Notes: generated from the sequence alone by a model not told the origin. Counted from the stretch's first letter, positions 47,993 through 63,418 are shown. The stretch: DNA of 64,000 nt from Terriglobia bacterium (GCA_963724105.1 CAVRTD010000002.1:29650-93649); one strand, 5' to 3'. Numbers and translations: made by a program.

Positions 47993-48020
47993 AAGGACAG
48001 ATCCGCAAAAAAATCTGCGA

Positions 48021-49382
48021 TCACATCCGAGATTCAGTTTGGCCAGGTTTCCAGAAAGACACTTTCGGCCTCCACCTGGCGTCGGAGCCCGATGGTAGGC
48101 TCTTTGATTCGAAAATGTCACTTCCGCTTCGAAGGAGAATCGATGCAAGCCTTGTAGTCTCCTGAGAGATGGCTGGATCGATTGGCGCACCATCCGTCAA
48201 GTCAGACCAAAACGCACTTTTTTTGCGTAGATCTACATTCAACACAAAAAGGTATGCGGCCGAAGCCAAAACAAGGTGGTGATGGAACCCTTTCCATGAC
48301 CGTCCCTGGTAGCAGCCCAGATCCAGATCACGTTCAAGACAGCCCTGGTACTGCTCCTGATACGAACGATGCCGGCTCAACCGGAGGCACATGGTTTCAG
48401 TTGGCCGTTTGTGGAAACGCGCGAGGTAACAACGATAAGGTTGTGCCTGCCCGTCGGGCCAATCGACAACAAACCAGAGTCTTTGGAGGCTGCTACTTAT
48501 CCCATGTAGACCGGAATCCAGGAAGACCTCGCGAATTGCAAGCCGCGTTTGCCGTGAAGTACCTTCACGCGTAGCCCAGGAGCAGCGCGACCATTCTGCG
48601 GCCCCGATTTTTTGCATGATTTTTTCCAGCGTGTATGGATGCGGCTGCAGGCTCGAATTCCATTCAGGCGTGTTGGACTGAAAATCCCAGGCAATATTCG
48701 TTTTTGGATCCACTTCCAGAAAGAATTCCATTCCAGCGTGCAATAAGGCTGAACGAAAATCGGCGTCGTTGCCGTAAGCAGCATCGCCTACCAGCGGCTT
48801 GGGATGGAGCCCGTCACCGGTCACTTCCCGCAATAGTGCTAGCACAAGGGATGACCGTGAGGGAAAACATGCATCCTTGGGGACCCCGGACCGCGACAGT
48901 CTCGATGACTCGGCAGCCCAGTCTGGCGGGAGATACAGCCGTGCAGCAAGCGGCGCCGCGAACGATCCATCACTGGCCAGTATCTCCACGCTGATCTGGC
49001 AACGGGACTTCTTGCCATCCGCGCCACATCGCTGGTTTGATACGCCGACAGATTCATTCCCCTGCTTTGTCCATGCTCTCTCATTCACCACCCAGCGATC
49101 GACCGGTTCAATAGTGGGAATGATTGCTCTACGTATGCGCGTCCAAACCTGTTGATCGTCCCATGGGCTGTTTGCAATCGTCTGATGCAGGCTCTGGGAG
49201 TCTACTTGCAGCCGCTCGGCAAGAGGACGAATGAATTTTCTTCTTCCGGGCAGCAGCAGGCCTTCAATGTATCTGGCGGTGGCGACCCGCCGCTCCTGCC
49301 TGCCGATGCTTTCCAGCAGCGTGGAGAGATAGCGAGTCAGGTAGGGAATATTTTCTTTATATGTTGCCAGTTCCCACTTCAT
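48021..49382 (-). mobile_element. IS701-family-like DDE transposase gene, apparently degenerate, no terminal inverted repeats found
   Basis: Start MKWELATYKEN with RBS GGAGG. The sequence WVVNERAWTKQGNESVGVSNQRCGADGKKSRCQISV...ARLYLPPDWA...VGDAAYGNDADFR...GCYQGRSWKGFHHHLVLASAAYLF follows the IS701 DDE_5 layout. The first catalytic position reads N-E-R where I expect D-D-T (motif recalled from memory). Confidence 0.65.
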
Positions 49383-49452
49383 AAATTCACGACCTCCCCT
49401 TCCGACCCACATCATGGTTCCCGAATTTCCGCGGTCTGGGCGAACATAGCGT

Positions 49453-50535
49453 CTAAGCAGACGCCTTCCACAAGATCGGCGACCGCATTGCGAACTCTAA
49501 AACCTCATCCATCGACTGATCCTGAATGGGAACGGGAAGCGCCGAATGGCGCAGCCACAGGAGACGCCATGTTCCGGGATACCATTGGCGCAACCTCTCG
49601 ACCCCGCGCCACAACAGTCGCGAGAGGTACACCTCTTCAGGGTTGTTCAATCCAATCCGATTGGCAGTCATGTGAATGTGGCTTGACGTAATGGGCCAGT
49701 GGGCTTGCCGGGAAAGACCGCTGATCTCAGCAGCCAGGCCCCGGCTAATATTCACCAGGCTGGACGGCTCACAATTTTTGCTGGCACACACGGACTCAAG
49801 CTCTGCGATTACTAATTCTGTAATCTGCTTTTCCTGCCGCGAAAACACAAGATCAGCCTCCCGAATACAAGGCTCCAGCGAATCACCCCATGCCTCTGAG
49901 GCATACGCGGCGAGCCGGACAAAATCTTCTTCGTCACCCGCCAGTCCCCAGGCAAGTTGGAGGGCCAGACGCATCATCGCGGAGTTAATCCAGTCACGAC
50001 GGGAATTGCCGCGTTCATCCAGCATTTTCAGGATAGCCAGACTGGAGATGCAAAAAAGATCAATCGAGGCGCCGATATGGTCTGCGCCTCCATAGCGATT
50101 GATTTCAAACACAGGGGTAAACTGCCGCCATGAATTGTCCGCGTAGACACGACTAACGTCCGCTCGTGCTGCCGGATCAGTGGTTGCAATCGCCCGGTTC
50201 GTAGCCAGGATCTGGTCCTGAGCAACCGGCGCTTTAGAAGGATACTTGTCAAAAAAACCGGCAGCGCGCTTTTGTAGAACTTCCTCCGCGCGTCCACTGG
50301 TATTTTCATCTTTCAATCGCCAGCGCAAACGGAGATGAGGGCCTCCAAGCGAGTACCGGACAAAATAAAACCGGTCGATCACTCCCAGGCTAGCCAGTTC
50401 GAGCATGAGCGGCCACGCCAGTTCCCGCAACATTCTGTCGCGATCGGCATGATAGAACACGTGGTATGCGCGCCAGCGCAGCAATGAATCTGGGCACGTG
50501 CCACCATTAGATTGACCTATAAGTTGCGTTGCCAT
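49453..50535 (-). CDS. stand-alone LanB C-terminal (SpaB_C / thiopeptide-type) elimination-domain protein
   Basis: LLRWRAYHVFYHADRDRMLRELAWPLM...IDRFYFVRYSLGGPHLRLRWRL and the C-terminal SSHIHMTANRIGLNNPEEVYLSRLLW match the Lant_dehydr_C / TIGR03891-type pattern (W..Y...; FF.RY..GPHLRLR; H.h.NR). Confidence 0.8.
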   Translation of the reverse strand: MATQLIGQSNGGTCPDSLLRWRAYHVFYHADRDRMLRELAWPLMLELASLGVIDRFYFVRYSLGGPHLRLRWRLKDENTSGRAEEVLQKRAAGFFDKYPSKAPVAQDQILATNRAIATTDPAARADVSRVYADNSWRQFTPVFEINRYGGADHIGASIDLFCISSLAILKMLDERGNSRRDWINSAMMRLALQLAWGLAGDEEDFVRLAAYASEAWGDSLEPCIREADLVFSRQEKQITELVIAELESVCASKNCEPSSLVNISRGLAAEISGLSRQAHWPITSSHIHMTANRIGLNNPEEVYLSRLLWRGVERLRQWYPGTWRLLWLRHSALPVPIQDQSMDEVLEFAMRSPILWKASA

Positions 50536-51395
50536 GCGTAGAGAATAATTGGGATTTCTTGTAATACGATTTGCCCCAATTGCAGCAGAGTGAAGTGGTT
50601 GATCGAGCGCAGGAGACCGAACCCCTGAGCGAGAGAAGACTTTGATTGCGAGACGATCAGGAGAACCAGTCCGTCCACGTCCACCGAGAGGTCAGTTTCT
50701 TCATTCCATATTTCGGAAAAGAATTTCTGATTTGCCCGCGAGACGGCTTTTTGCAGCCATTCGCTTGACATCTCTGGCCGTTCCTTGATGCTTTGCTCCA
50801 GCCCGAACAGAAGACTTCCAGCATGGAAGCGCCAGTAGTCCGCGGGCGGAATTTTTTGCCTTTTCAATGATCGATCAACCGCTGCCAGCCAGCGAACCGC
50901 TGCTCGTGAGACGTTGCCGCCAGCTTGCTCCAAGGCCCAGAAACATACCTGGTCGATGCGCTCCCAGAGTTCATCTGCCGCAGCAACGCCGGCATTGAGC
51001 AGAAAGGGATAGCCATTGTGTTCATGCTCAAAAATCTGAAAGGAGTTGTTCAGGGCTGAACCTGGCTCTCGATCAGCCAGATTCATCGTCCTGCCCCTGC
51101 ACCCGCCGTGCCGTTCAGACACTTCCTGAGCGCTAAGTTGTGCGTGGCTTGGATAACGGGTAATAAATTTCTGAATATTGTCCTGGAGATAGGTCTTAAC
51201 GCAGTCTCCTCCGGCGGTTGTGGTGGTGAAGATGCCGAAGACGTGCGGGCTCCGCGCGTCATACGGGCAAAACCAGAGCCGCTGCAGCAATCCCTGCCGA
51301 CGGACATCGTGCGCCCACGCGTTGAGTCCGTGTTGCAGGAGGCGCTGCTGGTCCTCCATTCCCCAATAATAGATATTAAATCCGATATTCGTCAT
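50517..51395 (-). CDS. divergent SpaB_C-like paralogue (start uncertain)
   Basis: NIGFNIYYWGMEDQQRLLQHGLNAWAH...LQRLWFCPYDARSPHVFGIF and the C-terminal LLRSINHFTLLQLGQIVLQEIPIILYAW are collinear with the SpaB_C pattern. The canonical GPHLRLR and H..NR residues are replaced. Candidate starts are at 51395, 51419 or 51359. Confidence 0.5.
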   Translation of the reverse strand: MTNIGFNIYYWGMEDQQRLLQHGLNAWAHDVRRQGLLQRLWFCPYDARSPHVFGIFTTTTAGGDCVKTYLQDNIQKFITRYPSHAQLSAQEVSERHGGCRGRTMNLADREPGSALNNSFQIFEHEHNGYPFLLNAGVAAADELWERIDQVCFWALEQAGGNVSRAAVRWLAAVDRSLKRQKIPPADYWRFHAGSLLFGLEQSIKERPEMSSEWLQKAVSRANQKFFSEIWNEETDLSVDVDGLVLLIVSQSKSSLAQGFGLLRSINHFTLLQLGQIVLQEIPIILYAWQRNL

Positions 51396-52077
51396 AGATG
51401 CCGGGGCCGCTCGACTCATAATCGATCGCAATAGTCTCAAAACGAAAGAAGCTGCGGATAACACGATCGTAGAAAGGCATTCTTCGCTCTTCTTCCATGA
51501 CCATGCATAACTCTTCAAAGAAGGCAACGTTGGGCTGGCGAATCGAAAGAAAAAGACTACGGAGCGTCGAATAAAAAACGGCTGGACCGTGGGGCGTCTC
51601 GCAAAGAGGGGTGCGGTCCGTAAGCATCGCCTGCACGCGGCTGATGTGGCTATGCATTTCTTCCCATTTGCGCTGATTGCGCGCCACGCGAGCCTGGTTA
51701 ATACACAGGTCGGGACACTGCAGGGCGAATGGAATCAGGAATTCATATTCCTCTGCGGCCATGGCGACGGCCCTGTGTGCCCATTTCATCGACTCGCTTG
51801 CGCTCGCGAAATCTCCTGCTCGGTAGTGGTATAGGCCAAGAGTCTTGTAGTAAGACTGGTCAAGCACAACTCGAACCGAATTGGGTATGTCGACAGCTTC
51901 CAGAGCGCCACCGGCTTTCTGCAGAATGTTTCCGGCTTCCTTTATTTTGTGCGAACGAAGAAGCGGCATCGCGCTGTTGATCAGGCGCAAGATGTGGCAG
52001 TGACGTTTATATTCCCCAACCCATGCGAGCCCGGCATCACCGGTGCGCTCGATAAATTCAATCAGGATATCTGCCAT
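51376..52077 (-). CDS. unknown helical-repeat protein, paralogue 2 of a tandem pair
   Basis: 233 aa. It shares blocks with 52138-52809: YHYRAGDFASASESMKWAHRAV vs YFYSVGNFQQARESMNQAHDAV; QARVARNQRKWEEM vs QARIARNQRRWPEM; FYDRVIRSFFRFETIAIDYES vs LFDQFVRRMLRFQEIGIEYQS. No TM or signal peptide. Confidence 0.6.
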   Translation of the reverse strand: MADILIEFIERTGDAGLAWVGEYKRHCHILRLINSAMPLLRSHKIKEAGNILQKAGGALEAVDIPNSVRVVLDQSYYKTLGLYHYRAGDFASASESMKWAHRAVAMAAEEYEFLIPFALQCPDLCINQARVARNQRKWEEMHSHISRVQAMLTDRTPLCETPHGPAVFYSTLRSLFLSIRQPNVAFFEELCMVMEEERRMPFYDRVIRSFFRFETIAIDYESSGPGIYDEYRI

Positions 52078-52137
52078 CTCTTTAGCTCAACTGTTGCTCA
52101 AGAATTGACTGGTTTCTGCCTTGGTGGAATTTCACTA

Positions 52138-52809
52138 TCAAGATTGATATTCGATGCCAATTTCCTGGAATCGCAGCATGCGCCGGACAAATTGGTCGAA
52201 GAGGCGGCTTCGTTCTTCCTGGTCTACTATTTTGGCGGCTACACTGGATTCTTCAGTCGTCATGTCGCCGATCTGCGCAAAAAAACTACGAAACGCGGAA
52301 AAATATATTTTTTGACCATTGATTTTTTCGCACAAAGGAACATGGTCCAGCATCATTCCCTGTGCCTGCGCGACGAACGTATTCATTTCAGGCCAGCGGC
52401 GCTGGTTGCGCGCGATTCGCGCCTGATGAAGACAGAATTCCTGACAGTGCACCGCCAGCATGATCAACCAGTCCGCACTGCTGATGGCTCTTTTCACGGC
52501 GTCATGCGCCTGGTTCATTGATTCGCGGGCCTGCTGAAAGTTGCCCACGGAATAGAAGTAATAGCCGGCAACGCCGTGGTGCCAACGGTAGAGCACTGCG
52601 CTCACAGAATCTTGTTCGCCTCTCATCGCGGACAGATGATGCGCAAATTCCCGCAGCACTCTTCCCCCTTCTTCAATCTCGCCCTTGCGCATCAGAGCCA
52701 GCGCGCGATCGCTGAGTGCAACGGCAGGCAAGTGCCGGCGATAGGCGGCAGCCCAATCCTGGCCAGCGCTGCCAGTACGCTCGGCAAAATGAAGCCAATC
52801 ACATGCCAC
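52138..52809 (-). CDS. unknown helical-repeat protein, paralogue 1 of a tandem pair
   Basis: 223 aa; see the paralogue at 51376-52077. It is the first gene after the precursor-gene terminator. Confidence 0.6.
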   Translation of the reverse strand: MACDWLHFAERTGSAGQDWAAAYRRHLPAVALSDRALALMRKGEIEEGGRVLREFAHHLSAMRGEQDSVSAVLYRWHHGVAGYYFYSVGNFQQARESMNQAHDAVKRAISSADWLIMLAVHCQEFCLHQARIARNQRRWPEMNTFVAQAQGMMLDHVPLCEKINGQKIYFSAFRSFFAQIGDMTTEESSVAAKIVDQEERSRLFDQFVRRMLRFQEIGIEYQS

Positions 52810-52886
52810 GATTCAATTCCTCAATTCCCGCTGGATTCACGGTAGTCACTTTTTGACATCAACAGGTCCATTGGATAGATAAAAGC

Positions 52887-52920
52887 CTCTGGGACAGACA
52901 TCAAACCGCCTGTCCCAGAG
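52887..52920 (-). terminator. intrinsic terminator/attenuator hairpin after precursor gene A1
   Basis: CTCTGGGACAG (52887-52897) pairs perfectly with CTGTCCCAGAG (52910-52920), giving an 11-bp stem and a 12-nt loop. On the minus-strand RNA the hairpin begins 35 nt after the TGA and is followed by GCUUUUAUCUAU. Confidence 0.55.
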
Positions 52921-52954
52921 AAAACAAACAACTTGCAGCCTGGCGAACGAGATA

Positions 52955-53110
52955 TCAGCCAGAGCAGACGTTAGCGGAGCAGGATGCGATCGGGCAAGGT
53001 TCAAGAACGCCGCCGGAAACATCTTCCAGCGCCTGATCGGACAGTGGTTCAATCTCAACATCTTGTTTTTTTTCTGGAATTGCATTTGGATTGGTAGCTT
53101 TGTCAGACAT
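52955..53110 (-). CDS. lanA: lanthipeptide-type precursor A1 (51 aa), not in the ORF track
   Basis: Hand translation: MSDKATNPNAIPEKKQDVEIEPLSDQALEDVSGG|VLEPCPIASCSANVCSG*. RBS AAAGGAAAAAAC precedes the ATG. The leader is double-Gly type and the core has 3 Cys and 3 Ser. The 79-aa track ORF 52846-53085 is the wrong frame. Confidence 0.8.
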   Translation of the reverse strand: MSDKATNPNAIPEKKQDVEIEPLSDQALEDVSGGVLEPCPIASCSANVCSG

Positions 53111-53171
53111 GTTTTTTCCTTTCTATTGGATTTACTGTTGGTGGAGTCAATTTTTGCTTTGCGACAGGGCT

Positions 53172-53238
53172 CTCTTCTGAAGCCGGTTTAACTGGTACCA
53201 ACCGGTTCTTTGGGCCAGTCGAGTTGATCTCAGAAGAG
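53172..53238 (-). other. nested RNA stem-loop structure in the spacer between precursor genes A2 and A1
   Basis: The outer 9-bp stem is CTCTTCTGA (53172-80) / TCAGAAGAG (53230-38). The inner 6-bp stem is CCGGTT (53183-88) / AACCGG (53200-05). No U-tract follows on the minus strand. Confidence 0.4.
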
Positions 53239-53295
53239 CATGGCCCGTGTGAACCTCGGTGCAACCCAGCTATAGCCTGGATTGAAGCGATCCGG

Positions 53296-53451
53296 CTACG
53301 CTAGGTCGCCAGAGCAAACATTTGCGGAACATGAAGCGATGGGGCAGCCACCGGAAGCATCTTCGAGCGACTGGTCGGAAAGTGGTTCGATCTGAACGTC
53401 ATCCTGTTTCTTTTCGGGGACTACATTTGGTTTATTGGGAGTGTTAGCCAT
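53296..53451 (-). CDS. lanA: lanthipeptide-type precursor A2 (51 aa), not in the ORF track
   Basis: Hand translation: MANTPNKPNVVPEKKQDDVQIEPLSDQSLEDASGG|CPIASCSANVCSGDLA*. RBS AAAGGAACAACCATC precedes the ATG. It shares the CPIASCSANVCSG core block with A1. Confidence 0.8.
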   Translation of the reverse strand: MANTPNKPNVVPEKKQDDVQIEPLSDQSLEDASGGCPIASCSANVCSGDLA

Positions 53452-53642
53452 GATGGTTGTTCCTTTCGGTTTGTGTTTTTTGAATTCGGCCTTGCGGCCG
53501 TTGCTGCCGTTAGACGCCCACCACAGGTAAACGCCTAATCTCTTAAAAATTCTGGAAACTCAATGGAGAGGCCTGCCTTTAGCGTCACAAAAGTGAACGA
53601 CATGATTGGGCTCTGGTTCTTATAGCGTTCAACCCGGGCACT

Positions 53643-56399
53643 CTACCTTGTTGCGGCTTGCTCATCGCGTTGACGTAACCGAGATGACTCCCGGCTGGAA
53701 AACACATCGAGCGAAAACATGGCGCGCTCATCCACAGGCGATTGCAATGCAACCGCATCAACCAGCAATTCAACCGCCCACCTTTGCCCTTTGGAATCTC
53801 TGGGCATCATCTCCGGTTCGGGCAATGTTTCCACCAGCACAAGGGACCCTTCGGCTGCGAGCGCGATGGAGTGCAGGATCGAGATGAACAATGGTGAGCT
53901 CAGGTCCAGATATTGCGGCTTGTGGTATTTTCCCCGCGGGAAAGAATTAAGCTTCTCAGCCACAAACAAACGGGTTGGAATCTCGAACTTCCGGAGGAAA
54001 CGATGCAGCCGCTCAAACGCCTCTGGGCTCCCAGGGTCTTCCAGAATGCGCCGCAGATCTAGAGCTGGAACACTCCAACTCTTGCGCATAAGCACTACAT
54101 TTCCGATGCGCGTCCGCTCGCGGACGGTGATGCCATCGACCTCTCGCTGTAAGCGTTCGGGATAGAGGGGAATCGTATCTGTTGGTCCGAACGCACACAA
54201 AAACTTCACCAGAGTTGGCAGGTAAGTGGAGCCAGCAAGGCCGATATAAGACGCCAGGTAGCGCTGTCCACTGCGATCCTGCAGCCTGGGCCATCCATCT
54301 TCACCCACTGTAACAAACAGCTCTGCCAAAGAAAGGCGCCGTTCGGGCGCTATATCCATATGGGTTGCCGGCAGCACCAGGACTTTTGGGGTTTGTGGCG
54401 CATGCACGTTGAGCGTGTCACCACTCACGCAATGAATGTCCAATATCTGCAAGCATTCGTCGTTATCCAAAATTACCGCTCGCCGCGCTAACCCGTCAGC
54501 ATACTGATGGCGGAGCGGAGCCGGCATCAACGGAGTGTAACGGCTGGACATCCGGCCCGTTCCTTCTTTCAACCGGTTGAGCACCCACAGAGAACCATCC
54601 GCTGTAGCCGGTTGGAGAAAAAGGCAGCCGCCTCCCTGGTACTTCTTGAATGCGTCAGGTATCTCGTCCAGGAGAAGGTTAAAACGGCTTATCGAGATTG
54701 TGCGGCCCTGCGCATCATCCATCCAACAATTGCGCAAAGATTCGCGGGCAGCAGTGCGTACCGATAGCAAATGATCCAGCACATCCAGACCCAGCGGATT
54801 CCAGGTTGAATGCTGCTCCTCAGTGGACCTGATCGCGGACTCATGAGAAACGTATTCCTGGAACAAATCCCGCACAGCGTCAAACGCACTGAGAAGATCC
54901 AGCCTGCAGTGCTTCCCTTTACTTTTTTCGAGAACAGAGCCAACGCTGAATAGAAGATCAAGGCGGCGGTCAAACAAGCGTGAGTATCGTAAAAGTGGCT
55001 CTGCGCTCCGTTGGGCCTGTTCCATGGCCGTCCTTCCAACACTCACGACTGGAAGACCCTTATCGGATTTGGGAGAACACCAAACATCCTGATAAATATC
55101 GTGCCCGGGAATATGCGACGCCGTTTTCGTATTGGTCGGGAGTTGAGCAATACGAGTGGCGCTGAACACCATTTCGTCCATCGTTTGCTGCATGCGCAAG
55201 AGCGTTTGTCCCGGTTCATTTGCGGAAAAAAGATTTCCTTCCAGAAGCACTAACCGCTCCAGAAGTTCAATGAAGTTTTGCAGCGCCGGGTCATGCGGCA
55301 ACAGCTGGAGCTTTTGCAGGACCATTTTCTCAAGGTGCCCTTCATCGGCGCTCCAGGGCAACGCCAGATACAGAAACCCCAAATCAATCAGACTGTCTAT
55401 TTCTTCTTTGATCGACTCGGAATGCGCATCCATTTCATCTTCGATCAGCTTAAGTAGCTCAACATAATTGAGCGGACCGCTAGCCAGAAGTGATTGCAGG
55501 CGCTGGACGAGAGGCCCCTGAAGCCTGGCGCGAACAAGTGACTCGCGGTAGTAACGGATCTCCTTGGTATCTTCGTCCACTCGATACTGCCCGGGACGGC
55601 GGTGAAGAGTCCGTCCGTCCTCGAGTTTCGAAACTGAATCGTTAATCGCTACCGAAAGCGTGCGCCGCCACGGTTCATAAAGACATAACGCATCGGTACA
55701 CCGGTCAAGAATGTGTCTACGTACGCGCACTAGAGAATGCTGATCCCATTCACCAGGCAACAATCTCAAAGGCTCCGAGCCGCCTTCCACGCGACACAAC
55801 CCGACCGGAGTGAAAGTCGAGAATGGAGACAGTTTGAGAGAAGCCCGGCTGGCGTAACGCAATACTGTCGCGGCCAGGCGTTTTTCCCGGCGACCATAAT
55901 CTTCCGGCGCTTTCACTTTCAAACGGCCGGACTCGCTGGCCACTGTATTGCTTGCCACTGCCAGCCCGCAGCGGAACATGGGATTATCAATCAGCCCAGC
56001 GACACAGTGATACTGCCTTGTTGTTTCATCTCCGTGGGCTTTTACAAACTCTTGCTTTTGATGAGCGAGGTTCTCTTCCAGCTCAATCACTTGTTCCGCC
56101 AGCGCCGGAGCGGCTTGTTTTATGAGCATCCAAACCAGCTTCGTGCGATAGCGGGTTAGTGGACGTCCATTAAAGCAATCACGCTTGACTTCCAGGAGAG
56201 CGTGTCGTTTCTCGGTCGGAGCATTATGAATAGCCGCGTGAAGCTGTTCAACAAGTTCATTACGAGCGTTGGATAAATTAGCTTCGAGCTTTGCTATCGC
56301 ATTCAGAATATCGCCCAACCGGCTGGAAAAATCCTCCATTGTGCTGGCGGGGAGTCCGCTCAATCGGGCTATAAGTAGGGCTGAATTGCTCGTCGTCAC
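53643..56399 (-). CDS. lanB: LanB-type dehydratase, N-terminal (glutamylation) part only, no fused elimination domain
   Basis: 918 aa. MTTSNSALLIARLSGLPAST..., KRDCFNGRPL and LKLSPFSTFTPVGLCRV follow the Lant_dehydr_N pattern. The protein ends without a SpaB_C-like region. Confidence 0.85.
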   Translation of the reverse strand: MTTSNSALLIARLSGLPASTMEDFSSRLGDILNAIAKLEANLSNARNELVEQLHAAIHNAPTEKRHALLEVKRDCFNGRPLTRYRTKLVWMLIKQAAPALAEQVIELEENLAHQKQEFVKAHGDETTRQYHCVAGLIDNPMFRCGLAVASNTVASESGRLKVKAPEDYGRREKRLAATVLRYASRASLKLSPFSTFTPVGLCRVEGGSEPLRLLPGEWDQHSLVRVRRHILDRCTDALCLYEPWRRTLSVAINDSVSKLEDGRTLHRRPGQYRVDEDTKEIRYYRESLVRARLQGPLVQRLQSLLASGPLNYVELLKLIEDEMDAHSESIKEEIDSLIDLGFLYLALPWSADEGHLEKMVLQKLQLLPHDPALQNFIELLERLVLLEGNLFSANEPGQTLLRMQQTMDEMVFSATRIAQLPTNTKTASHIPGHDIYQDVWCSPKSDKGLPVVSVGRTAMEQAQRSAEPLLRYSRLFDRRLDLLFSVGSVLEKSKGKHCRLDLLSAFDAVRDLFQEYVSHESAIRSTEEQHSTWNPLGLDVLDHLLSVRTAARESLRNCWMDDAQGRTISISRFNLLLDEIPDAFKKYQGGGCLFLQPATADGSLWVLNRLKEGTGRMSSRYTPLMPAPLRHQYADGLARRAVILDNDECLQILDIHCVSGDTLNVHAPQTPKVLVLPATHMDIAPERRLSLAELFVTVGEDGWPRLQDRSGQRYLASYIGLAGSTYLPTLVKFLCAFGPTDTIPLYPERLQREVDGITVRERTRIGNVVLMRKSWSVPALDLRRILEDPGSPEAFERLHRFLRKFEIPTRLFVAEKLNSFPRGKYHKPQYLDLSSPLFISILHSIALAAEGSLVLVETLPEPEMMPRDSKGQRWAVELLVDAVALQSPVDERAMFSLDVFSSRESSRLRQRDEQAATR

Positions 56400-56615
56400 A
56401 GAACTGCTCCAGAAACTGCGTTATTGAGCTTTACCTTCAGGGCTGTGTCGAGAACTTCCACATGATGCCGGCAGCTCACGAAATCTCGCAAAGTGGAAGC
56501 GGACGTGCGCGGCCGGCACAAATGCAGTCGATTCAAACAGGCAAAATTGGATGGAGAAATCGTTTCAGGAATTGGTTAAATCTCGCGCCAGGCAATGGCG
56601 GTGATCAAGCGCAGC

Positions 56616-56765
56616 TCACCCTAAGTCTGGAGGCCCACACAAGGGTGAACCAGTTTCAGTACCGCCTGAAACTTCCTCAAGAGCGGCGTCGGAAAGGGGT
56701 TCGATTTCAGCGTCTTTCCGGCTCTGAATTGACTTGCCAGGCTGTTTTTTTTCCTCGTTTGGCAT
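56616..56765 (-). CDS. lanA: third precursor A3 (49 aa) with the same leader box, different core
   Basis: MPNEEKKQPGKSIQSRKDAEIEPLSDAALEEVSGG|TETGSPLCGPPDLG*. Start at the internal ATG 56765 of track ORF 56616-56810, with RBS GAAGGGA upstream. Confidence 0.7.
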   Translation of the reverse strand: MPNEEKKQPGKSIQSRKDAEIEPLSDAALEEVSGGTETGSPLCGPPDLG

Positions 56766-56831
56766 TTTTTTATCCCTTCGTAATAGATTTATGGGGCCTT
56801 GTGGTCGCAAATGAAACGCTCGTTGATGGAC

Positions 56832-57854
56832 TTACACCCGCGCAAGCTCCTGCGCAGGCACAAGACTATGATCTTCTACCGCTTTAATCAGAAGATGGTG
56901 CACATAGGCCTCATGCAGAGGTGTTACCCCAAATTGATTCGCCATTCCGTGCAACATCTTGAACAGAGGCGGAAAGTTCACGTTCGTAGTGAACGGATCA
57001 ATCTGATGTTCGCCGGAGCCGGCAAAAGATTGCGTATAAGCTGACAATGCCGCAAAGGTCCGCAACCACGGCTCTACTTCCTGGGCGCCGCTGTTGCGCG
57101 CCCACTCTTCATCACTGAGCTGCGCCAGCTTTGTTCTGGCAGTGCTGGAACCGGCTTGGGCATCAAAATGTGCACGAATCTCCAACTCTTTGCTGGATTC
57201 GGAAATGAAAAACCGCAAAAGCCAATCGCGATGAAAGGCAAGATATTCTGTCGCGCTGGTTCGATCACCAAGGCCAGAAGCACCCAGAGCCGAGATCAGG
57301 CTTTTTGCCAACAGAGATTGCTTGCTGCCATCCGAAAGCTCGCCCTGCTCATCTACGGCGGTGAGGAACACGCCAGTTGTTGCCGCAAGGCAACGACAGG
57401 CAAGGGCGACAAAATTTTCGTCTTCGAGCCAGGGTGACGCAGGAAGCGACACGTAGCTGCGTCCATAGGTTGTGGCGAGAAAGTTACGATCGGCGAAATC
57501 AGAATCTACTTTGTCTTCAGCGTCAATGGGTGGGGCCTTGGGATTACTTACACGAGGATCAGCCGCCAGGTAAGTGCGCGCTTTCTCGATCCACTTTTCT
57601 ACGTGGCTGTGCAGCAAAGGCCTCAGTGAATCCACCACAGCCCGCTCACCGTGAAGCCGAATCTTGAGGTGCTCCCCACCACGCGCGTAACGCATAATCC
57701 AAAGCCAACAATCCCCATCTGGCCGGACGCCCTGCATGTCACGCCAGAACGGCACAATCCCTTGCTGCAACAGGTTGTCCACCAGGCCGCTGGCATAAAT
57801 ATTTGCGGTTAAGATTGGATCTGCCGAATTGAGTGAATTAAGCATGTCCTTCAC
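56832..57854 (-). CDS. third SpaB_C-like (LanB C-terminal-type) paralogue
   Basis: ILTANIYASGLVDNLLQQGIVPFW...CWLWIMRYARGGEHLKIRLHG and the C-terminal LFKMLHGMANQFGVTPLHEAYVHHLL are collinear with the SpaB_C pattern. Confidence 0.65.
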   Translation of the reverse strand: MKDMLNSLNSADPILTANIYASGLVDNLLQQGIVPFWRDMQGVRPDGDCWLWIMRYARGGEHLKIRLHGERAVVDSLRPLLHSHVEKWIEKARTYLAADPRVSNPKAPPIDAEDKVDSDFADRNFLATTYGRSYVSLPASPWLEDENFVALACRCLAATTGVFLTAVDEQGELSDGSKQSLLAKSLISALGASGLGDRTSATEYLAFHRDWLLRFFISESSKELEIRAHFDAQAGSSTARTKLAQLSDEEWARNSGAQEVEPWLRTFAALSAYTQSFAGSGEHQIDPFTTNVNFPPLFKMLHGMANQFGVTPLHEAYVHHLLIKAVEDHSLVPAQELARV

Positions 57855-57932
57855 TTCCTATGGATGGTGGAACTGCTCTACTCTGAACGCCCCGCGGATC
57901 AAACCAGCGACTTGTTACGAGCAAAGCGGAAA

Positions 57933-58472
57933 TCAGGCCACGGAAACGTTTTGAAAATGTTGCTCAGGCGCGGGCAAGGGAACGTACCCACCGAGATCGA
58001 CAACGACGGAACTGCGAACGACTTCAATCGATAGAACCAGCCGATGCTGATTACGGTGACTCTCAACAACGCCTTCAATCCCATCAAAAGGGCCACCAGT
58101 AATCCGCACTCTGGAACCAATCTCTGCATACTCGCACGGTTGCATCTGGTATCCAGACTTGACAGCTGATTGAATTGCGCTGATTTCGTGGTCAGGGATG
58201 ATAGCTGGAGATTTAGCAGTACCGAGAATACGTATGACGCCTGGGGTCAACAGGATGGGACCGCTACCCATAGCCTTGATGCGACAAAATACATATCCGG
58301 CAAATAATGGAAGCTGTATTTCCTTCCATCGATCAGACCAGCGCCTGCGTACAACATAAGAAGGAGCAAATGTCTCGTAATTCTTTTCCGACAGGAGTCG
58401 CGCAGCAGTGAATTCATGCTGGTACCGTACGTAGATCGCACACCATGCGCTGTCATACTGGCTGAGGTCCAT
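57933..58472 (-). CDS. specialised NusG paralogue (RfaH/LoaP/UpxY-like antiterminator), first gene of the operon
   Basis: Start MDLSQYDSAW with a strong RBS GAAGGAG. The NGN-like N-terminus is WCAIYVRYQHEFTAARLLSEKNYETFAP. The KOW motif is IGSRVRITGGPFDGIEGVVES. Confidence 0.8.
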   Translation of the reverse strand: MDLSQYDSAWCAIYVRYQHEFTAARLLSEKNYETFAPSYVVRRRWSDRWKEIQLPLFAGYVFCRIKAMGSGPILLTPGVIRILGTAKSPAIIPDHEISAIQSAVKSGYQMQPCEYAEIGSRVRITGGPFDGIEGVVESHRNQHRLVLSIEVVRSSVVVDLGGYVPLPAPEQHFQNVSVA

Positions 58473-58921
58473 ACCGTCTCCTTCGGTCAACGTGAGTTTG
58501 CCGATACAGATGAATCGCACACTCTTCACCTCAAGCGGATGGAAAACAGCAGGACGTAATCTTTGTATAGAGGTGTGAGGGAGCCACCGGTTGCGGCAAG
58601 GCAGGCTGCCGCCATTTTGAGTCCCAACTTCTTACTCATTCACTAACCCTTACCGGGCCAGTCACAGTGAGAATTAGCAATGCCATTGCCAAAGCATGCG
58701 TTCTATGAAGAACCGTGCTTTCCATTGTGCATTTTGATTCACAATGATTATGTTTGTGATGGTGATTCCCACTTTGAAATTATGGATCCGCTGCTCGTTC
58801 CGCTTTTAGTTGGAGTTCAACGACTATCATTTCCATTCTGGTTGACGATTGCTGCGGTGCCGGACAGGAACAACCGTAAAGGTGGCAAATTTAATTTTGT
58901 CCGACTTATCCTCAGCCAGGC

Positions 58922-58957
58922 ACGACTAAGGTGTCCGCCAGCGGAAAAATATGTCCA
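58922..58957. promoter_or_regulatory. tandem palindromes TGTCC-N6-GGA(A/C)A spaced 20 bp apart, in the long region upstream of the NusG-led operon
   Basis: TGTCCGCCAGCGGAAA (58922-58937) and TGTCCAGCGGTGGACA (58942-58957). The 3' part GTCCAGCGGTGGACACCTTT is repeated exactly at 63739-63758. Confidence 0.4.
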
Positions 58958-59068
58958 GCGGTGGACACCTTTCGGCGGCAATCGTGAGAGAAAGACCTTT
59001 GAATGGAAGCCGCCCGGGGTAAGATCGCATTAGAAGCTGCCGGTGGAGCGCGGTCCCGTGTAAAAGAA

Positions 59069-60331
59069 CTATTGGATGGGGGTTGACGGCGTGAATTTTG
59101 GAACCATAATCACGATGTCATATCCAAAAATAAGCCGCTCCAGCTCTTCATCAACTGGGCCAAGCGCTTTAAATCTCCGGCGAAGGCCGCGAAGATCGTA
59201 GAGAGTCCAGCCTTCCGGCAATCGATGGTCCACCAGCGGCTTAATGAAAGAAACCGCAGAACTTGTATCCTGTACCAGATCAAAATTCTCCAGTTGCGGT
59301 GGCTGGCCGGGCGCACCAAAACTGATCTCTGCTCCCTTCACTCCAATGATGTTGATATGAAGAGAGGTGGAATGATGGCCTTCTGCCAATTCAGCCACAA
59401 AATTGCCCAGATCGTCGTTATGTAGAGGATTAATCCCCTTATAAAGGTGGGCGGAGCCAAACTTGAGCAAGACTTTGGCGGGTTTTCCCTCAGCCCGCGT
59501 CTGGTCATCATAATAACGGGCGAACAACGCCTTCATCATTAGCGCCCGCTGAAGGTTGGAATCATAAGCTTCACCCTGCAGATATTTGTGGTAGATATCG
59601 CGGCTTTCGATGAAGGCATTCAGAATGGCTTGCGAAGCCGGATTCCCTTCCCGAGCCACCGAGTTCTTAAGTTCCAGAATCTCGCTGTCCGGCACAGACA
59701 GCATAAAAATATCGTTCACTTTCCCCGAAGCCACGGTCCGCGCATAGGCTTGATCATTTTCGCGGAACATCTGGCGTATTTTGGCAGCCGCCGCCTTGCC
59801 GGGATGAGAATTCAAGAGGCTCTGTAGCAAAAACCTGGACTCTCCGTAAAACTCCTGATCAAGCCCCCATATATGGAATTTTTCATTTTCCGCAGTATGG
59901 CTGCAATGGGCCAACAGATCTGTTTCCTCCTGAAGACGATAGAATGGGAGGGCGTCTGGAAATTCTTTCTGAAACTCAGCAACCTGGTGGCGTGAATCCG
60001 TGGAGCGGGCCCACTTCTCTAATTGGCCGGCCATCATTGGGCCGGTTTCAATTGCCATGGAATGAAACCCTTGCGGAACGGCAAGGTCACATATTGCAGA
60101 AGAGAACTCGGGGGTTTCCGCATTGCCGTGTTGTTCACCGATGAGCACAAACTGGGCGGAGGCAATGGCCTTGCGCAGAACCTCAGCTCCTGCGCCAGAT
60201 AAATGCCCATCCTTCAGGTTGAGATCATAGCGGTTCTCAAGAAGTTGTTTTCCGAGTTGTTCCTGCGCCAACATACATCCAAGGCCGGCAATTCCTAGAA
60301 ATACCACAGCCGCCAGTTTGGTGATCACCAA
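59069..60331 (-). CDS. secreted Tiki/ChaN/erythromycin-esterase-superfamily-like protein
   Basis: 420 aa with a signal peptide (AAVVFLGIAGLGCMLAQ). FVLIGEQHGNAETPEFSSAICDLAVPQGFHSMAIETG resembles the GE.H(G)..E...Gf...E N-terminal signature of that superfamily (recalled from memory). The gene follows lanKC by 80 nt. Confidence 0.45.
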   Translation of the reverse strand: MVITKLAAVVFLGIAGLGCMLAQEQLGKQLLENRYDLNLKDGHLSGAGAEVLRKAIASAQFVLIGEQHGNAETPEFSSAICDLAVPQGFHSMAIETGPMMAGQLEKWARSTDSRHQVAEFQKEFPDALPFYRLQEETDLLAHCSHTAENEKFHIWGLDQEFYGESRFLLQSLLNSHPGKAAAAKIRQMFRENDQAYARTVASGKVNDIFMLSVPDSEILELKNSVAREGNPASQAILNAFIESRDIYHKYLQGEAYDSNLQRALMMKALFARYYDDQTRAEGKPAKVLLKFGSAHLYKGINPLHNDDLGNFVAELAEGHHSTSLHINIIGVKGAEISFGAPGQPPQLENFDLVQDTSSAVSFIKPLVDHRLPEGWTLYDLRGLRRRFKALGPVDEELERLIFGYDIVIMVPKFTPSTPIQ

Positions 60332-60411: not shown

Positions 60412-63111
60412 TCAGGATCCGACGTGCATTGCAACCAGCGCCTGTTCTTCTTCCGAGAATAAAGTACCATCTCTTGCAAACAAGGAGTCAAGCATAAAAT
60501 CGTTTTGCTGATTTCCAAGCAGGCGGTTAAGAAATAGAGCAATGCCTGCGCTTCCTGTACCGAAATCACATGACAGCCTGAATAGTGAATTTCCGGGAAA
60601 TGCGATTCCCTTCCGTTCCACACGGAAATTCATTATTCCCTCTGCAAGTCTGGCAGCACTTTCCCGATACCGGGAGTGTGCGGTCAGGTCGTGCATGTCG
60701 AGAAGAAACTCGCCGATGCCTGCCAGGCCAGTGAATCGTCCTGCAAAAACCGCGTATTTCCGGTCGGTATCCAGATAGATCTTATCCAAAACCTGTTCAT
60801 AGCAGGATTCACCGAGCAGTCGGTAGTAGCGCGCCGTTGCAATCCCGATTCCAGCACTCCCGTGCTGCCAGTATGGATAGACCGGCGACGTTGATCCGGT
60901 TGACATGGGCCACGTAAGTCCCGCATCTTTATTTTGCAATCCGAAACTCAGATCAAAGTCCAAAGCACGCCGCCCAACATAAAGAAAGCGCTCATTCTTT
61001 GTTGCGAGATAGAGGTAGAGCAGGAACAGAGCAATGCCGGAAGATCCGCGGGCAAGGCCGAGAGGCGCACCTTCGCGTTCACCCCAGTAGCAGCCGCGTC
61101 CGTCTTCTTTACACTGCTCGACAAGGTGATTCCCGGCTTGCACGGCGTGCGCAAGGTAAACTCTGTCGTTCGTAGCCATCCAGAAACGCAGGTCTGCCAT
61201 CCCCCACCCGGAAACGCCATGGAAGAGATCGCAAGCATCAAAAGCCAGGGGATGTGTATGGACCTGGCGCATTGCAGTCTCTGCTTCTGCCTGCAACCCC
61301 ATTTCAAGCAGACTCCATGCAATTCCAGCGAGCCCGATATACAGACCTGGAGCATATGTCCCATGCGTCAAACGCTTGTTGCTGATCCACTGCAGAACAC
61401 GGGAGGGCACGCCTCCTGTGATTTTGTGCCATGCATAAGCCACACCACATGCCCCAAAAGCGAGGCTGAGCGGGTTGGTAGCAAAGAGCCTGGCATCGGC
61501 CGGAAACAGCCTATCTTCGCGTTCATACGTTACCGTACTCTTCCAGTGGTCGACGATGCGCTCCAACACGCAAGGGTAGTTCTCCCGCCTGAGTTCATGC
61601 ACGGGCTCCACTTCGACGCTGGAATCTTCATCCATCAGGCAACCGAGACGGGCGGGTGTTGTAGGCTGACCTGGATCATGATTCATCAATCCAATAATCA
61701 TGCTTGTGATTGATCTGGGCAGTCGAGAATCCTTGCGTATCGATTCCATCAGCTCACGAATCGCTTCTCTTTTAAGTTGAATGAGGCCATTCCAGGGAAA
61801 AAGGTAGGCAAACAGGACCGCTCCAAGCGAATAGTAATCACTTTCAATGTCGGCAGGCATACCCTGGAGTCGATTCGGCGAGACGAATCCAGGAGTAAAA
61901 AGATTGGTGGGACGATCAATCTCTTTCTGGTAAGCACCTTCGAAGTCGATAAGCTTCAGGGAAGTGCCGCCGGCCAATACCATCACATTATTCGCGGAGA
62001 GATCCGCGAAGACGATGCCACGGCTATGCAATACTTCGATCATCCGGATGAGATTCAGAGAGATTTCAACAAAGGTCCGCTGCCATTCGACATAGTCTGT
62101 CTGCAAAGGCCTGGTGCGGAGCAAAATATTGTGCGCCGCGGAGTAACGGCCCAGTACCATTCCGTCAATGTATTCTTCAACTAGGAACCAATGCTCCCAA
62201 TCCTGGAAGAGATCCACGGGTTGCGGGGCTATTCCTGTATCGGCGATGACTGTGAGCAGGCGGTGTTCCTTCTTGAGCAGTTCCACCGCATCGTAACCGT
62301 CAAACGATTCATTCACGAACGGCCGGGCTTCCTTGATCACGACGGGCTGCCGGGTGAGATGGTCAAACGCCTTATACACGCCTCCGGCATTGGAAAAATC
62401 AATTACACTTTCGATCGTATAACGCCCTTGCTTAAGAGTTGGGCTGGCTTCGTTGTTGTCCGCTGGCTCGTCTGGAGCCAGTGGACCACATACCCAGTCC
62501 GGCGTAATGGGATACGGAAGCCTCTGATCGGGGACTGAACTCCCGTCAGGGGTGATAAGAACGGGAACACTCTCGCCTTTTACATTCAGCTTCTCACGGA
62601 GGCGCATTCCACCGTATCGATAGAAAACAACGCCACTATCTTTATAACGGCGATCTGAGAGAATGTAGGGCCCCTGGAATCCCTTAAGTTCTTGACGCAG
62701 GGATTCAATCAGTTCCAGAAAGCAATGGTCATTTTGAGGGTAGATGGTAATGAATTTGGAAGATCCCCCTCGAGGGAAGTTTTTGCCGTTCACAAGCTGC
62801 AATACCCGCAGATCCAGGGAAAATTTAAACGTGGTGTCCTGACGCTGGAGGAGCAGTGCGCTCACGCGATCCAGCACTTCACGCGCATTTGCCAGCGAGC
62901 TGGAAACATGTATCTTCCAACCCTGGTATGGACAGAGATTTTGTTGTGAGGAGCAAACAAACCAGAGCTGTTGCCGGCGAATCTCCCATCCCCCTGACAA
63001 CCGAGACGAGACTAGGTCATAAAAATCCTTAGTGCGCGGCACATAGTAGTCAAATGTTTCGTCATAATCGCTTTGCACCAGGCTATAAAGCCCATATGCT
63101 CTGGTTCGCAT
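60412..63111 (-). CDS. lanKC: class III lanthipeptide synthetase (lyase - kinase - Zn-ligand-less cyclase)
   Basis: The lyase motifs are QGWKIHVSS and SKFITIYP. The kinase motifs are GGVYKAF..VVIKEA, FADLSANNVMV and KLIDFEGAY. The C-terminal LanC-like repeats (GSSGIALFL, YWQHGSAGIGIA, CDFGTGSAGIALFL) lack the WC and CH zinc ligands. The probable start is MRTRAYG (63111, RBS GAAGGGA); the track gives a TTG at 63132. Confidence 0.85.
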   Translation of the reverse strand: MRTRAYGLYSLVQSDYDETFDYYVPRTKDFYDLVSSRLSGGWEIRRQQLWFVCSSQQNLCPYQGWKIHVSSSLANAREVLDRVSALLLQRQDTTFKFSLDLRVLQLVNGKNFPRGGSSKFITIYPQNDHCFLELIESLRQELKGFQGPYILSDRRYKDSGVVFYRYGGMRLREKLNVKGESVPVLITPDGSSVPDQRLPYPITPDWVCGPLAPDEPADNNEASPTLKQGRYTIESVIDFSNAGGVYKAFDHLTRQPVVIKEARPFVNESFDGYDAVELLKKEHRLLTVIADTGIAPQPVDLFQDWEHWFLVEEYIDGMVLGRYSAAHNILLRTRPLQTDYVEWQRTFVEISLNLIRMIEVLHSRGIVFADLSANNVMVLAGGTSLKLIDFEGAYQKEIDRPTNLFTPGFVSPNRLQGMPADIESDYYSLGAVLFAYLFPWNGLIQLKREAIRELMESIRKDSRLPRSITSMIIGLMNHDPGQPTTPARLGCLMDEDSSVEVEPVHELRRENYPCVLERIVDHWKSTVTYEREDRLFPADARLFATNPLSLAFGACGVAYAWHKITGGVPSRVLQWISNKRLTHGTYAPGLYIGLAGIAWSLLEMGLQAEAETAMRQVHTHPLAFDACDLFHGVSGWGMADLRFWMATNDRVYLAHAVQAGNHLVEQCKEDGRGCYWGEREGAPLGLARGSSGIALFLLYLYLATKNERFLYVGRRALDFDLSFGLQNKDAGLTWPMSTGSTSPVYPYWQHGSAGIGIATARYYRLLGESCYEQVLDKIYLDTDRKYAVFAGRFTGLAGIGEFLLDMHDLTAHSRYRESAARLAEGIMNFRVERKGIAFPGNSLFRLSCDFGTGSAGIALFLNRLLGNQQNDFMLDSLFARDGTLFSEEEQALVAMHVGS

Positions 63112-63226
63112 ACATAATCCCTTCGTGCTCAATACTTGTAGCGAATCCTAAATACAATTTTGCGGCCGGCGATCTGGCGCCGAATATTCAACCTTGCTCC
63201 TGTTTTTCATTTCCAATTCCTGCAAA

Positions 63227-63263
63227 CCGTTCCGAACGATTGCCAGCAAGAGGTTCAGAACGG
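63227..63263 (-). terminator. imperfect hairpin after the class III precursor gene (attenuator candidate)
   Basis: CCGTTC-c-GAAC ... GTTC-a-GAACGG gives 10 paired bases with one mismatch pair and a 15-nt loop. On the minus-strand RNA it starts 15 nt after the TAA and is followed by UUUGCAGG. Confidence 0.4.
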
Positions 63264-63277: not shown

Positions 63278-63418
63278 TTACTCATGATGAAGTGGACTGG
63301 CCTCTTCTGCTTGTACCGTAGGACAAATGCCGCTCGCTGTACTCATCAACATCTCTTCTCCAGCTATAACGTCCGGGGCCCATGTGGTCAACTTTTGCAG
63401 CGCAAGGATGTTACCCAT
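63278..63418 (-). CDS. class III lanthipeptide precursor (46 aa), not in the ORF track
   Basis: Hand translation: MGNILALQKLTTWAPDVIAGEEMLMSTASGICPTVQAEEASPLHHE*. A strong RBS AGGAGAAAAATCT precedes the ATG. ILALQKL matches the class III leader ILxLQ box. STASGIC is a Ser-x-x-Ser-x-x-Cys unit. Confidence 0.75.
   Translation of the reverse strand: MGNILALQKLTTWAPDVIAGEEMLMSTASGICPTVQAEEASPLHHE

Follow-up and report, generated by a model that had tools for sequence, protein, structure and literature searches.

A dedicated NusG paralogue and an ops-like leader element in an acidobacterial lanthipeptide operon: a candidate antitermination circuit

The window analysed here, 64,000 nucleotides of DNA from Terriglobia bacterium (GCA_963724105.1, CAVRTD010000002.1:29650-93649), carries a class I lanthipeptide operon whose first gene encodes a paralogue of the elongation factor NusG. 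Polysaccharide, conjugation, toxin and polyketide operons are known to have NusG paralogues of their own. We propose that this one is an operon-specific anti-termination or anti-polarity factor, recruited at an ops-like element in its own leader and serving a lanthipeptide operon of at least 12 kb, in which a hairpin behind precursor gene A1 would act as a leaky terminator; we consider this reading reasonably probable. The case rests on the family to which the protein belongs, on conserved synteny, on an ops-like element that is itself conserved and recurs across the family, and on two kinds of covariation, one linking protein and site and the other within the hairpin. The cluster looks to be the first operon for a peptide antibiotic that carries a read-on device of its own. 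Coordinates are those of the window, and features lie on the minus strand, as do all genes from 58472 to at least 46703, unless stated otherwise.

The NusG paralogue and its leader element

The paralogue (57933..58472) starts at an ATG at 58472 preceded by a ribosome binding site, GGAG, with the same start in 179-aa homologues. It is itself 179 aa long, has an NGN domain and a putative KOW-like C-terminal domain and falls in an acidobacterial UpxY-like family. The NGN domain was recognised by Pfam (PF02357, E 1.7e-15, residues 28-119 of the 198-aa open reading frame), and the UpxY model of NCBIfam (NF033644) matched residues 10-158 with 110.1 bits against a cutoff of 100. Scores against the models for RfaH (TIGR01955; 62.2 bits, cutoff 144.5), LoaP (NF033641; 59.4 bits, cutoff 125) and NusG (TIGR00922; 36.3 bits, cutoff 135.7) fell well short; the family placement is taken from these curated model scores rather than from a tree with reference LoaP, TaA and UpxY. 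All four models span residues 10-158 and therefore include the KOW-like part, and an hhalign alignment to RfaH extends to residue 157, while the Pfam KOW model did not match the protein. In an AlphaFold2 model built from a 32-sequence alignment, the NGN domain had a predicted local distance difference test score (pLDDT) of approximately 90, and the C-terminal domain was beta-stranded at a low pLDDT of 40-55.

The sequence-only reading had taken the first gene of the operon to encode a specialised NGN and KOW protein of the RfaH, LoaP or UpxY type, and the NGN match, the UpxY score and a NusG score far below its cutoff support a specialised paralogue. Neither secE nor rplK was found among the neighbours of the gene, which are lanthipeptide genes. 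As far as such comparisons go, the protein is a specialised, operon-specific paralogue and not the housekeeping NusG, because its NusG score lies far under the cutoff, secE and rplK are absent from its neighbourhood and related genomes carry multiple paralogues.

The gene order of the window recurs, with homologues 63-74% identical, in metagenome contigs L001, L002, L003/L084 and L164/L165; L084 represents the same population as L003, ends ahead of the hairpin and was the sole close relative added by a metagenome scan. The recurring order is NusG paralogue, Lant_dehydr_C, small peptide, Lant_dehydr_N, precursors, two TPR genes, two Lant_dehydr_C genes, DDE_5 and LanC, and L002 also carries, upstream and like the window, genes for a class III LanKC and a homologue of a 420-aa protein. 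A 99% identical paralogue is present in another strain (590-kb ENA contig). Judged from L001, L002 and L003/L164, the link between the paralogue and the lanthipeptide cluster is conserved in independent metagenome lineages.

GTDB species-representative genomes yielded 339 members of the family, nearly all from Acidobacteriota (Ca. Angelobacter, Terriglobia, Bryobacterales) and all at most 52% identical to the window protein. At 63 loci the first downstream gene was scored; it was most often one for polysaccharides, and belonged to Bac_transf in 20, Poly_export in 13, Glycos_transf_4 in five and Wzz in four. A giant nonribosomal peptide synthetase (NRPS) gene comes next downstream in the Ca. 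Angelobacter relatives L005, L009 and L020, and paralogues stand directly after a class III LanKC gene in L004, L006 and L009. Two paralogues per genome were found in QHVI01 (L004, L024), CAWDER01 (L067, L070) and DATNMX01 (L015, L065). At locus L157 an independent paralogue lies directly ahead of a class II LanM gene (DUF4135 and LANC_like; L157 7047..11089), which by its position is a second, independent association of a NusG paralogue with a lanthipeptide cluster. The family would appear to consist of operon-heading elongation factors, one branch of which has been recruited to lanthipeptide clusters.

A recruitment site had been anticipated in the 540-bp region upstream of the gene, and the search of homologous clusters for a conserved motif supplied a candidate in the extended ops-like element TGGGACTCAAAATGGCGGCAGCCTG (58602..58626). 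This is block 3 of the three conserved blocks that stand out in the otherwise diverged upstream regions when the window is aligned with L001, L002 and L003. The sequence TGGGACTCAAAATGGCGGCAGCCTG is invariant in the window, L001, L002, L003 and L084, and AATGGCGGCAGCCTG is invariant in four diverged leaders. On the predicted transcript the element occupies approximately +40 to +64, which is 130-154 nt ahead of the ATG. Its core, GGCGGCAGCCTG (58613..58602, non-template strand), differs from E. coli ops, GGCGGTAGnnTG, at base 6 only (T6C) and so matches 9 of the 10 specified positions.

The same kind of element is widespread in the family. The motif GGCGGNAG was present 25-140 nt before the start codon at 50 of 84 loci and, in a further set of 77 metagenome loci, at 67; the background rate is 0.14 per 730 nt. 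Its usual form is TGGGACTC-aaA-(G/T)-GGCGGTAGC-t-TG. Two loci, L057 and L064, carry the exact E. coli rfaQ-type sequence GGCGGTAGCGTG, identical at 12 of 12 positions. A position-weight matrix made from the family sites gave one hit in the window, the 58626..58602 site, and no second ops-like site was found in the 64 kb, the class III leader included. Neither an E-value-based Rfam scan of 46-64 kb, JUMPstart (RF01707) included, nor a text search of the literature for GGCGGTAG returned anything relevant.

Among 95 unique sites, positions 2, 3, 4, 7 and 8 never vary, position 5 is G, A or C, position 6 is T, C or G, position 10 is free and position 11 is T in 85%. In the RfaH:ops complex, C3:G8 forms the stem and G4-A7 the loop of a hairpin in which G5 and T6 alone are read in a base-specific manner, and U11 marks the pause (PMC5995543). 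As far as an alignment can reveal it, the per-position pattern of the family sites is that of the RfaH:ops logic. Counted from the predicted pause, TGGGACT, which makes up the upstream half of the element, spans -23..-17. In Bacteroides, UpxY touches the upstream DNA duplex at approximately -17 to -24, and a basic beta hairpin is suggested to hold the DNA in position (PMC11685472). The turn of the equivalent beta hairpin in the AlphaFold2 model is formed by RRWSDRxKE, the stretch most strongly conserved among the acidobacterial proteins. About a quarter of the family loci have a sigma-54-type site approximately 35 nt upstream of the ops-like element, which places the element in the transcribed leader and indicates that it is not itself the promoter.

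Two further observations concern individual sites. A 6-bp stem, GCGGCA...TGCCGC (58612..58593), overlaps the ops-like core in the window; it is absent from L001 and L003 and for that reason is probably not a conserved pause hairpin. In L157 a loop-variant ops-like site, TGCGACAGCTTT, is found approximately 170 nt upstream of the paralogue start.

Covariation between protein and site was examined in 105 non-identical pairs. Where the loop is GT (n = 87), the residue aligned with RfaH H20 is His in 58 of 87 proteins and Arg70 is present in 86 of 87; where it is GC or AC (n = 15), the corresponding counts are 0 of 15 and 2 of 15. Sites with C at position 6 cluster near the window protein, 8 of the 12 falling within the top 24 of 162 relatives (hypergeometric 2.5e-5), and loop variants GGCGACAG and related sequences occur in L004, L087 and L157. 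The roles of the ops-contact residues of RfaH have been described (PMC5995543), and the covariation seen here is what direct read-out of both loop bases would give.

A wider reading, which we put forward tentatively and as possible rather than probable, is that the acidobacterial paralogues all load at an ancient RfaH-type ops hairpin and distinguish their own operons through a two-base loop code that is coupled to a His26/Arg70 switch in the NGN domain, with GT in polysaccharide operons and GC or AC in lanthipeptide and NRPS operons. The window would then hold the first cluster for a ribosomally synthesised and post-translationally modified peptide (RiPP) with its own processive antitermination factor, and ops would be older and wider in distribution than RfaH. 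That an ops loop code is common to this large acidobacterial family is a broader implication and less certain. The natural series of site and protein variants offers material for testing the specificity of NusG paralogues.

Hairpins at the precursor genes and the proposed circuit

A terminator-like hairpin with the tail CUUUUAUCU follows directly after A1 (52877..52921), as found by folding and by comparison of five lineages. The structure itself (52921..52886) has a stem of 14-15 bp that includes two G-U pairs, a loop of 6 nt and a tail C-UUUU-AUCU; its folding energy is -25.1 kcal/mol (z = -7.6 against shuffles). It was the top terminator-like site of 46-64 kb, a region in which such sites as a class are not enriched (27 found, 20.1 ± 4.6 expected). 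Further clusters for comparison were fetched through homologues of the TPR-like protein encoded 3' of the hairpin, and a hairpin was found after a CSANVCSG-type precursor in five lineages, namely the window, L003/L164, L168, L169/L170 and L171. The homologous stems are of 12-15 bp, 92.9% of the cells in the alignment are paired, and both sides have changed in 6 of 14 pairs (e.g. GGGAC/GTCCC to GGAAC/GTTCC). None of 500 shuffles equalled this pairing and all slid controls collapsed. The 3' tails are U-rich and uneven, ranging from CUUUUUUG in L168 to UUAUUCCC in L171. By this covariation the A1 hairpin is under selection for structure.

The invariant lower stem of the A1 hairpin, CTGGGACAG/CTGTCCCAG (52921..52886), also holds the TGGGAC of the upstream half of the ops-like element (58626..58620). 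The GGACA/TGTCC half-sites of a palindrome upstream of the operon (58966..58953) are likewise contained in it, in the opposite arrangement, which may be chance. The hairpin was considered as a second operator for a regulator that binds the palindrome, and this was rejected on account of the opposite arrangement of the half-sites.

A long nested stem lies between A2 and A1 (53172..53238; -23.3 kcal/mol, z = -3.5) and lacks a U-run; its homologue in L168 shows two compensatory pairs. After the class III precursor there is a stem-loop (63227..63263; z = -3.6 in a 91-nt context) with no U-run and without resemblance in sequence to the A1 hairpin. Hairpins follow the precursor at other class III loci too, their sequences differing, and those of L166 and L167, read by eye and unfolded, have the U-rich tails TTTTTCAT and AAACTTTTCTTATTCTT, respectively. 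The sequence-only reading had reported all three structures of the window, and each proved real: the hairpin after A1 has a short U-run and a stem of 14-15 bp, not 11; the nested structure lacks a U-run; and the class III stem, described as similar to that after A1, resembles it in neither tail nor sequence.

A double hairpin, TTAGGCGT...GCGTCTAA followed by GGCCGCAAGGCC, was found by eye in the leader of A2 (53487..53538). The pattern TTAGGCRT...AYGCCTAA with GGCCG...GGCC recurs ahead of the first precursor after LanB (L164 8816..9017; L168 267..862, twice; L169 2892..3000; L171 2475..2596), with both arms changed between lineages, again by eye. Possible roles are those of a 5' stabiliser, a processing site and an operator.

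From these comparisons we infer pausing, loading, antitermination activity and sigma-54 dependence, in the following order. Transcription of the class I operon would start at a sigma-54-type promoter (58691..58676) activated from palindromes approximately 250 bp upstream. Some 60 nt into the leader, RNA polymerase would meet TGGGACTC-N4-GGCGGCAGCCTG and pause at the U of ...CCUG. The non-template strand would fold into a small ops hairpin with stem C3:G8 and loop G4-A7, at which the paralogue would load through its NGN domain, reading both bases of the loop, which here are G-C and not G-T, and probably the upstream duplex TGGGACT as well. Once loaded it would stay on the polymerase, keep housekeeping NusG off and damp pausing and premature termination. 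The modified elongation complex could then cross four untranslated gaps (145-216 nt) around the precursor genes and reach LanC approximately 12 kb downstream, and read-through of the operon over at least 12 kb would thereby allow expression of the TPR-like, additional Lant_dehydr_C and LanC genes. The hairpin after the last CSANVCSG-type precursor would serve as a partial intrinsic terminator, a 3' stabiliser or both, leaving more precursor mRNA than enzyme mRNA. The factor might in addition act on this hairpin, and thereby on the precursor-to-enzyme ratio.

Several observations weigh against this proposal. The window protein has R16, L26, E29 and P77 at the positions of RfaH K10, H20, R23 and R73, so that three of the four ops contacts are replaced in this alignment, for which the RfaH sequence was entered by hand; with H20, R23 and R73 replaced, the protein is not an RfaH orthologue, and any read-out of the C6 site must work in another way. 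The protein-site covariation is confounded by shared ancestry. The window site scores 15 bits on the family matrix against a median of 35, because it has one extra spacer base between TGGGACTC and GGCGG. The low confidence of the model of the C-terminal domain bears on any RfaH-like autoinhibition or ribosome coupling, a Pfam scan of 30 window open reading frames found no gene for a sigma-54 activator, and the DDE_5 transposase gene breaks the gene array ahead of LanC. Finally, the 14-15 bp stem after A1 resembles antitermination-resistant terminators (PMC10325885).

The last of these points underlies the alternative that survives best, which accepts the paralogue as a genuine ops-recruited factor and takes the A1 hairpin as the antitermination-resistant end of a unit made up of the paralogue, the LanB parts and the precursors. 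A separate promoter that has escaped recognition would serve the TPR-like, Lant_dehydr_C and LanC genes, and the factor would not adjust the precursor-to-enzyme ratio by way of this hairpin. RfaH-type factors are described as weak, and RfaH is reported to be inefficient, against intrinsic terminators (PMC7819879), and terminators with stems of at least 14 bp resist conAn processive antitermination in Bacillus, conAn's own resistant terminator having a 15-bp stem and a 7-nt loop (PMC10325885). Since RfaH acts weakly on terminators and long stems resist, the A1 hairpin, with its 14-15 bp stem (12-15 bp in homologues), 6-nt loop and U-run, could act independently of the paralogue or end its transcription unit. 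This resistance rule, however, comes from a different antitermination system, and the local arrangement fits poorly with an end of transcription. LanC, which is needed for ring formation, lies downstream of the hairpin, and no promoter-like site was found in the 77-nt gap between hairpin and next start codon. The U-tracts are weak or broken in three of the five lineages (AUUAUUAC, AAUUUUCG, UUAUUCCC), and L171 has a further precursor gene behind the hairpin and then, at a distance of 52 nt, the TPR gene. We regard this alternative as unlikely.

A slightly smaller chance is given to the hairpins being elements of RNA processing or stability, or protein-binding palindromes, that guard abundant precursor mRNAs, with the paralogue countering only Rho-dependent polarity in the long untranslated gaps. 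The A2-A1 and class III stems do lack a U-run, and the double hairpin is conserved ahead of precursor genes too, as would be expected of stabilised, processed transcripts. In addition, four of the five lineages share an identical lower stem of the A1 hairpin, CTGGGACA/TGTCCCAG; that of L169 differs by a single compensated change, G:C to A:U. This suggests a sequence constraint besides pairing. Its upper stem nevertheless covaries like an RNA helix, and the hairpin has a U-run in the window and the canonical CUUUUUUG in L168.

The leader element could in principle be a promoter (e.g. of the extracytoplasmic function type, with TGGGAC as -35) or the operator of another regulator, its 24 nt being similar to ops by convergence or chance. 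The window protein lacks the T6-pocket residues of RfaH, the element always lies a short way upstream of the gene, as a promoter would, and a recognisable sigma-54 site lies upstream in only about a quarter of the loci. At loci that have that promoter, however, a fixed spacing of approximately 35 nt separates it from the element downstream. The element is also specific to the leaders of NusG-paralogue genes; its loop bases covary with the H20-aligned residue; its invariant and variable positions mirror the stem, loop and pause roles in RfaH:ops (PMC5995543); and the matches to GGCGGTAGnnTG in the window (9 of 10) and to the rfaQ type in L057 and L064 (12 of 12) are close. A promoter or operator is therefore improbable. 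That the gene is a housekeeping or decaying NusG copy, a chance neighbour with no role in the cluster, has nothing in its favour beyond the shared NGN fold and is contradicted by a NusG score of 36 bits against 135.7, by gene order and leader conserved at 63-74% identity, and by relatives that occur several to a genome and always head long operons.

Comparison with known systems

Taken together, the paralogue appears to belong with UpxY by curated score, with RfaH by its recruitment signal and with LoaP and TaA by its target, while lacking defining features of each. As with UpxY, the protein passes the NCBIfam cutoff, heads the operon that it presumably controls and has several paralogues per genome among its relatives, most of which in Acidobacteria head polysaccharide operons. 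Its candidate recruitment element likewise lies in the leader right before the gene and is in two parts, as are the non-template hairpin and upstream duplex of UpxY (PMC11685472). The differences are that the target here is a lanthipeptide rather than a capsular polysaccharide or exopolysaccharide and the phylum is Acidobacteriota; that the core of the element is that of proteobacterial ops and not Bacteroides opsX; that gene 2 encodes a Lant_dehydr_C-like protein, with no UpxZ-type gene at that place (no UpxZ-specific model was run); and that the promoter is of the sigma-54 type, with no invertible promoter seen.

The resemblance to RfaH lies in the 12-nt non-template leader element, which in the window shares 9 of the 10 specified positions with GGCGGTAGnnTG and in L057 and L064 all 12 with the rfaQ type, in its fit to the G-10/Y-1/G+1 pause consensus with the same invariant stem and variable loop, and in the His that GT-type relatives keep at the H20-equivalent position. 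Unlike RfaH, which is encoded monocistronically and acts in trans, the paralogue is encoded within its target operon; it scores 62 bits against a cutoff of 144.5, has H20, R23 and R73 replaced and faces a C at base 6. The conserved upstream half TGGGACT is an addition to ops, and an alpha-helical C-terminal domain was not predicted for the paralogue, at the low confidence of that part of the model.

In Bacillus, LoaP reads through intrinsic terminators inside its operon, needs a leader RNA hairpin and antagonises NusA (PMC12691694). Like LoaP and the TaA of Myxococcus, the paralogue is a dedicated factor beside a long secondary-metabolite operon, and close relatives of the window protein head NRPS operons. 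It differs from LoaP in its score (59 bits against a cutoff of 125) and in that the conserved leader element is ops-like DNA, and the known targets of LoaP and TaA are polyketides, not ribosomal peptides. In lantibiotic operons, GC-rich leaky terminators follow the structural genes, as between nisA and nisB and after ltnA2 of lacticin 3147. The window resembles these in having a GC-rich hairpin and U-run between the last precursor and the modification genes, and departs from them in having a dedicated elongation factor in the same operon and a long stem of 14-15 bp whose lower half is conserved in sequence.

Literature searches returned no description of ops in Acidobacteria and no paper that ties a NusG paralogue to lanthipeptides or any other RiPP cluster. 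The finding puts the ops sequence of E. coli in a distant phylum, in the company of proteins of the NCBIfam UpxY family. If the circuit works as proposed, heterologous expression of such clusters would call for the paralogue together with its ops variant and, probably, sigma-54 plus an activator, which is of relevance to the mining of Acidobacteria, bacteria that are hard to culture and rich in biosynthetic clusters.

Promoter regions and gene content of the window

Block 2 of the upstream alignment is a sigma-54-type promoter, TGGCAATGGCATTGCT, of the form GG-N10-GC (58676..58691), identified from the alignment and by pattern search. It is the sole exact match to TGGCA-N6-TTGCW in 64 kb (58691..58676), TTTGGCA....C.TTGC is invariant across four homologous clusters, and the predicted transcription start of the class I operon is at approximately 58665. 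A second such promoter, TGGCTATTTTCTTGCA (63490..63505), was read from the sequence ahead of the class III precursor gene, and equivalent GG-N10-GC sites precede class III precursors in L002, L004, L006 and L009.

Block 1 comprises tandem palindromes, GTCC-N6-GGAC, spaced 20 bp and conserved in the alignment (58931..58971), with a second copy upstream of the class III operon (63717..63757). The 19-mer AAGGTGTCCACCGCTGGAC at the start of block 1 occurs exactly twice in the window, the second time at 63757..63739, where 0.02 occurrences would be expected. Both operons have the same tandem palindromes approximately 250 bp upstream of sigma-54-type promoters. Such pairs lie 220-480 bp upstream of sigma-54-type promoters in nine instances (L001-L004, L006 and L009 included), compared with a background rate of 0.023 per kb. 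No variation is seen in the stems, only in the loops, which fits a protein-binding site better than an RNA helix, and the palindromes are a probable upstream activating sequence for a sigma-54 enhancer-binding protein. We infer that both lanthipeptide operons depend on sigma-54 and share one activator. A Sigma54_activat gene lies beside the class III cluster of L166.

The class III cluster has a lanthipeptide precursor gene (63418..63278) and a LanKC synthetase gene (63132..60412; NCBIfam lanthi_synth_III, 753 bits). Next comes the gene for the 420-aa protein, which has no family match (60331..59069) and is separated from the NusG paralogue gene by a gap of 596 bp. In the class I operon, gene 2 encodes a Lant_dehydr_C-like protein of 340 aa (56832..57854; Pfam PF14028, E 2.9e-11) and keeps its position in L001, L003, L164 and L084. 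It is followed by the gene for a small precursor-like peptide, A3 (56616..56765), with a GG-type leader, EIEPLSDAALEEVSGG, and the core TETGSPLCGPPDLG as translated. A3 is a third precursor-like peptide whose leader is of the type seen in the other precursors and whose core, TETGSPLCGPPDLG, is unrelated and poor in Cys; it is kept between the Lant_dehydr_C and Lant_dehydr_N genes, a 53-aa homologue being found at the equivalent place in L001 (4386..4547) and L164 (5770..5931). Next come the gene for the LanB N-terminal (glutamylation) domain protein of 918 aa (53643..56399; Pfam PF04738, E 4e-23) and those for the precursors A2 (53296..53451; core CPIASCSANVCSGDLA) and A1 (52955..53110; core VLEPCPIASCSANVCSG).

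Beyond the A1 hairpin lie genes for two paralogous TPR-like proteins (52809..52138 and 52077..51376), two further Lant_dehydr_C-like proteins (51527..50517 and 50535..49453), a DDE_5 transposase (49415..48021) and LanC (48193..46703, start uncertain); this distal order (46703..52809) is the same in L003, L164 and L165. For a class I cluster, a split LanB with three separate Lant_dehydr_C-like proteins (57854..56832, 51527..50517 and 50535..49453), two of which match the family only weakly, makes an unusual set of enzymes. The DDE_5 gene has the same position and orientation between the last Lant_dehydr_C gene and LanC in L003 (17199..18376) and L164 (13430..14818), and is 82% identical between clusters, against 62-68% for the other cluster genes; it may be an old insertion in the operon that was retained or homogenised. 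The TPR-like proteins, of approximately 225 aa each, have no family assignment, and distant homologues occur in class III LanKC clusters beside ABC transporters and without a NusG paralogue (L166 10001..10699; L167 10001..10663). They look like an uncharacterised family of lanthipeptide accessory proteins.

A peptidase-C39 ABC exporter, suited to GG leaders, is encoded on the plus strand at 31592..33910. After LanC come genes for a response-regulator adenylate/guanylate cyclase and a PDZ/GAF hybrid histidine kinase (46700..41902), with overlapping stop and start codons. This pair is conserved with the cluster (L164 16192..20669), which may point to a tie between lanthipeptide production and signalling by nucleotide second messengers.

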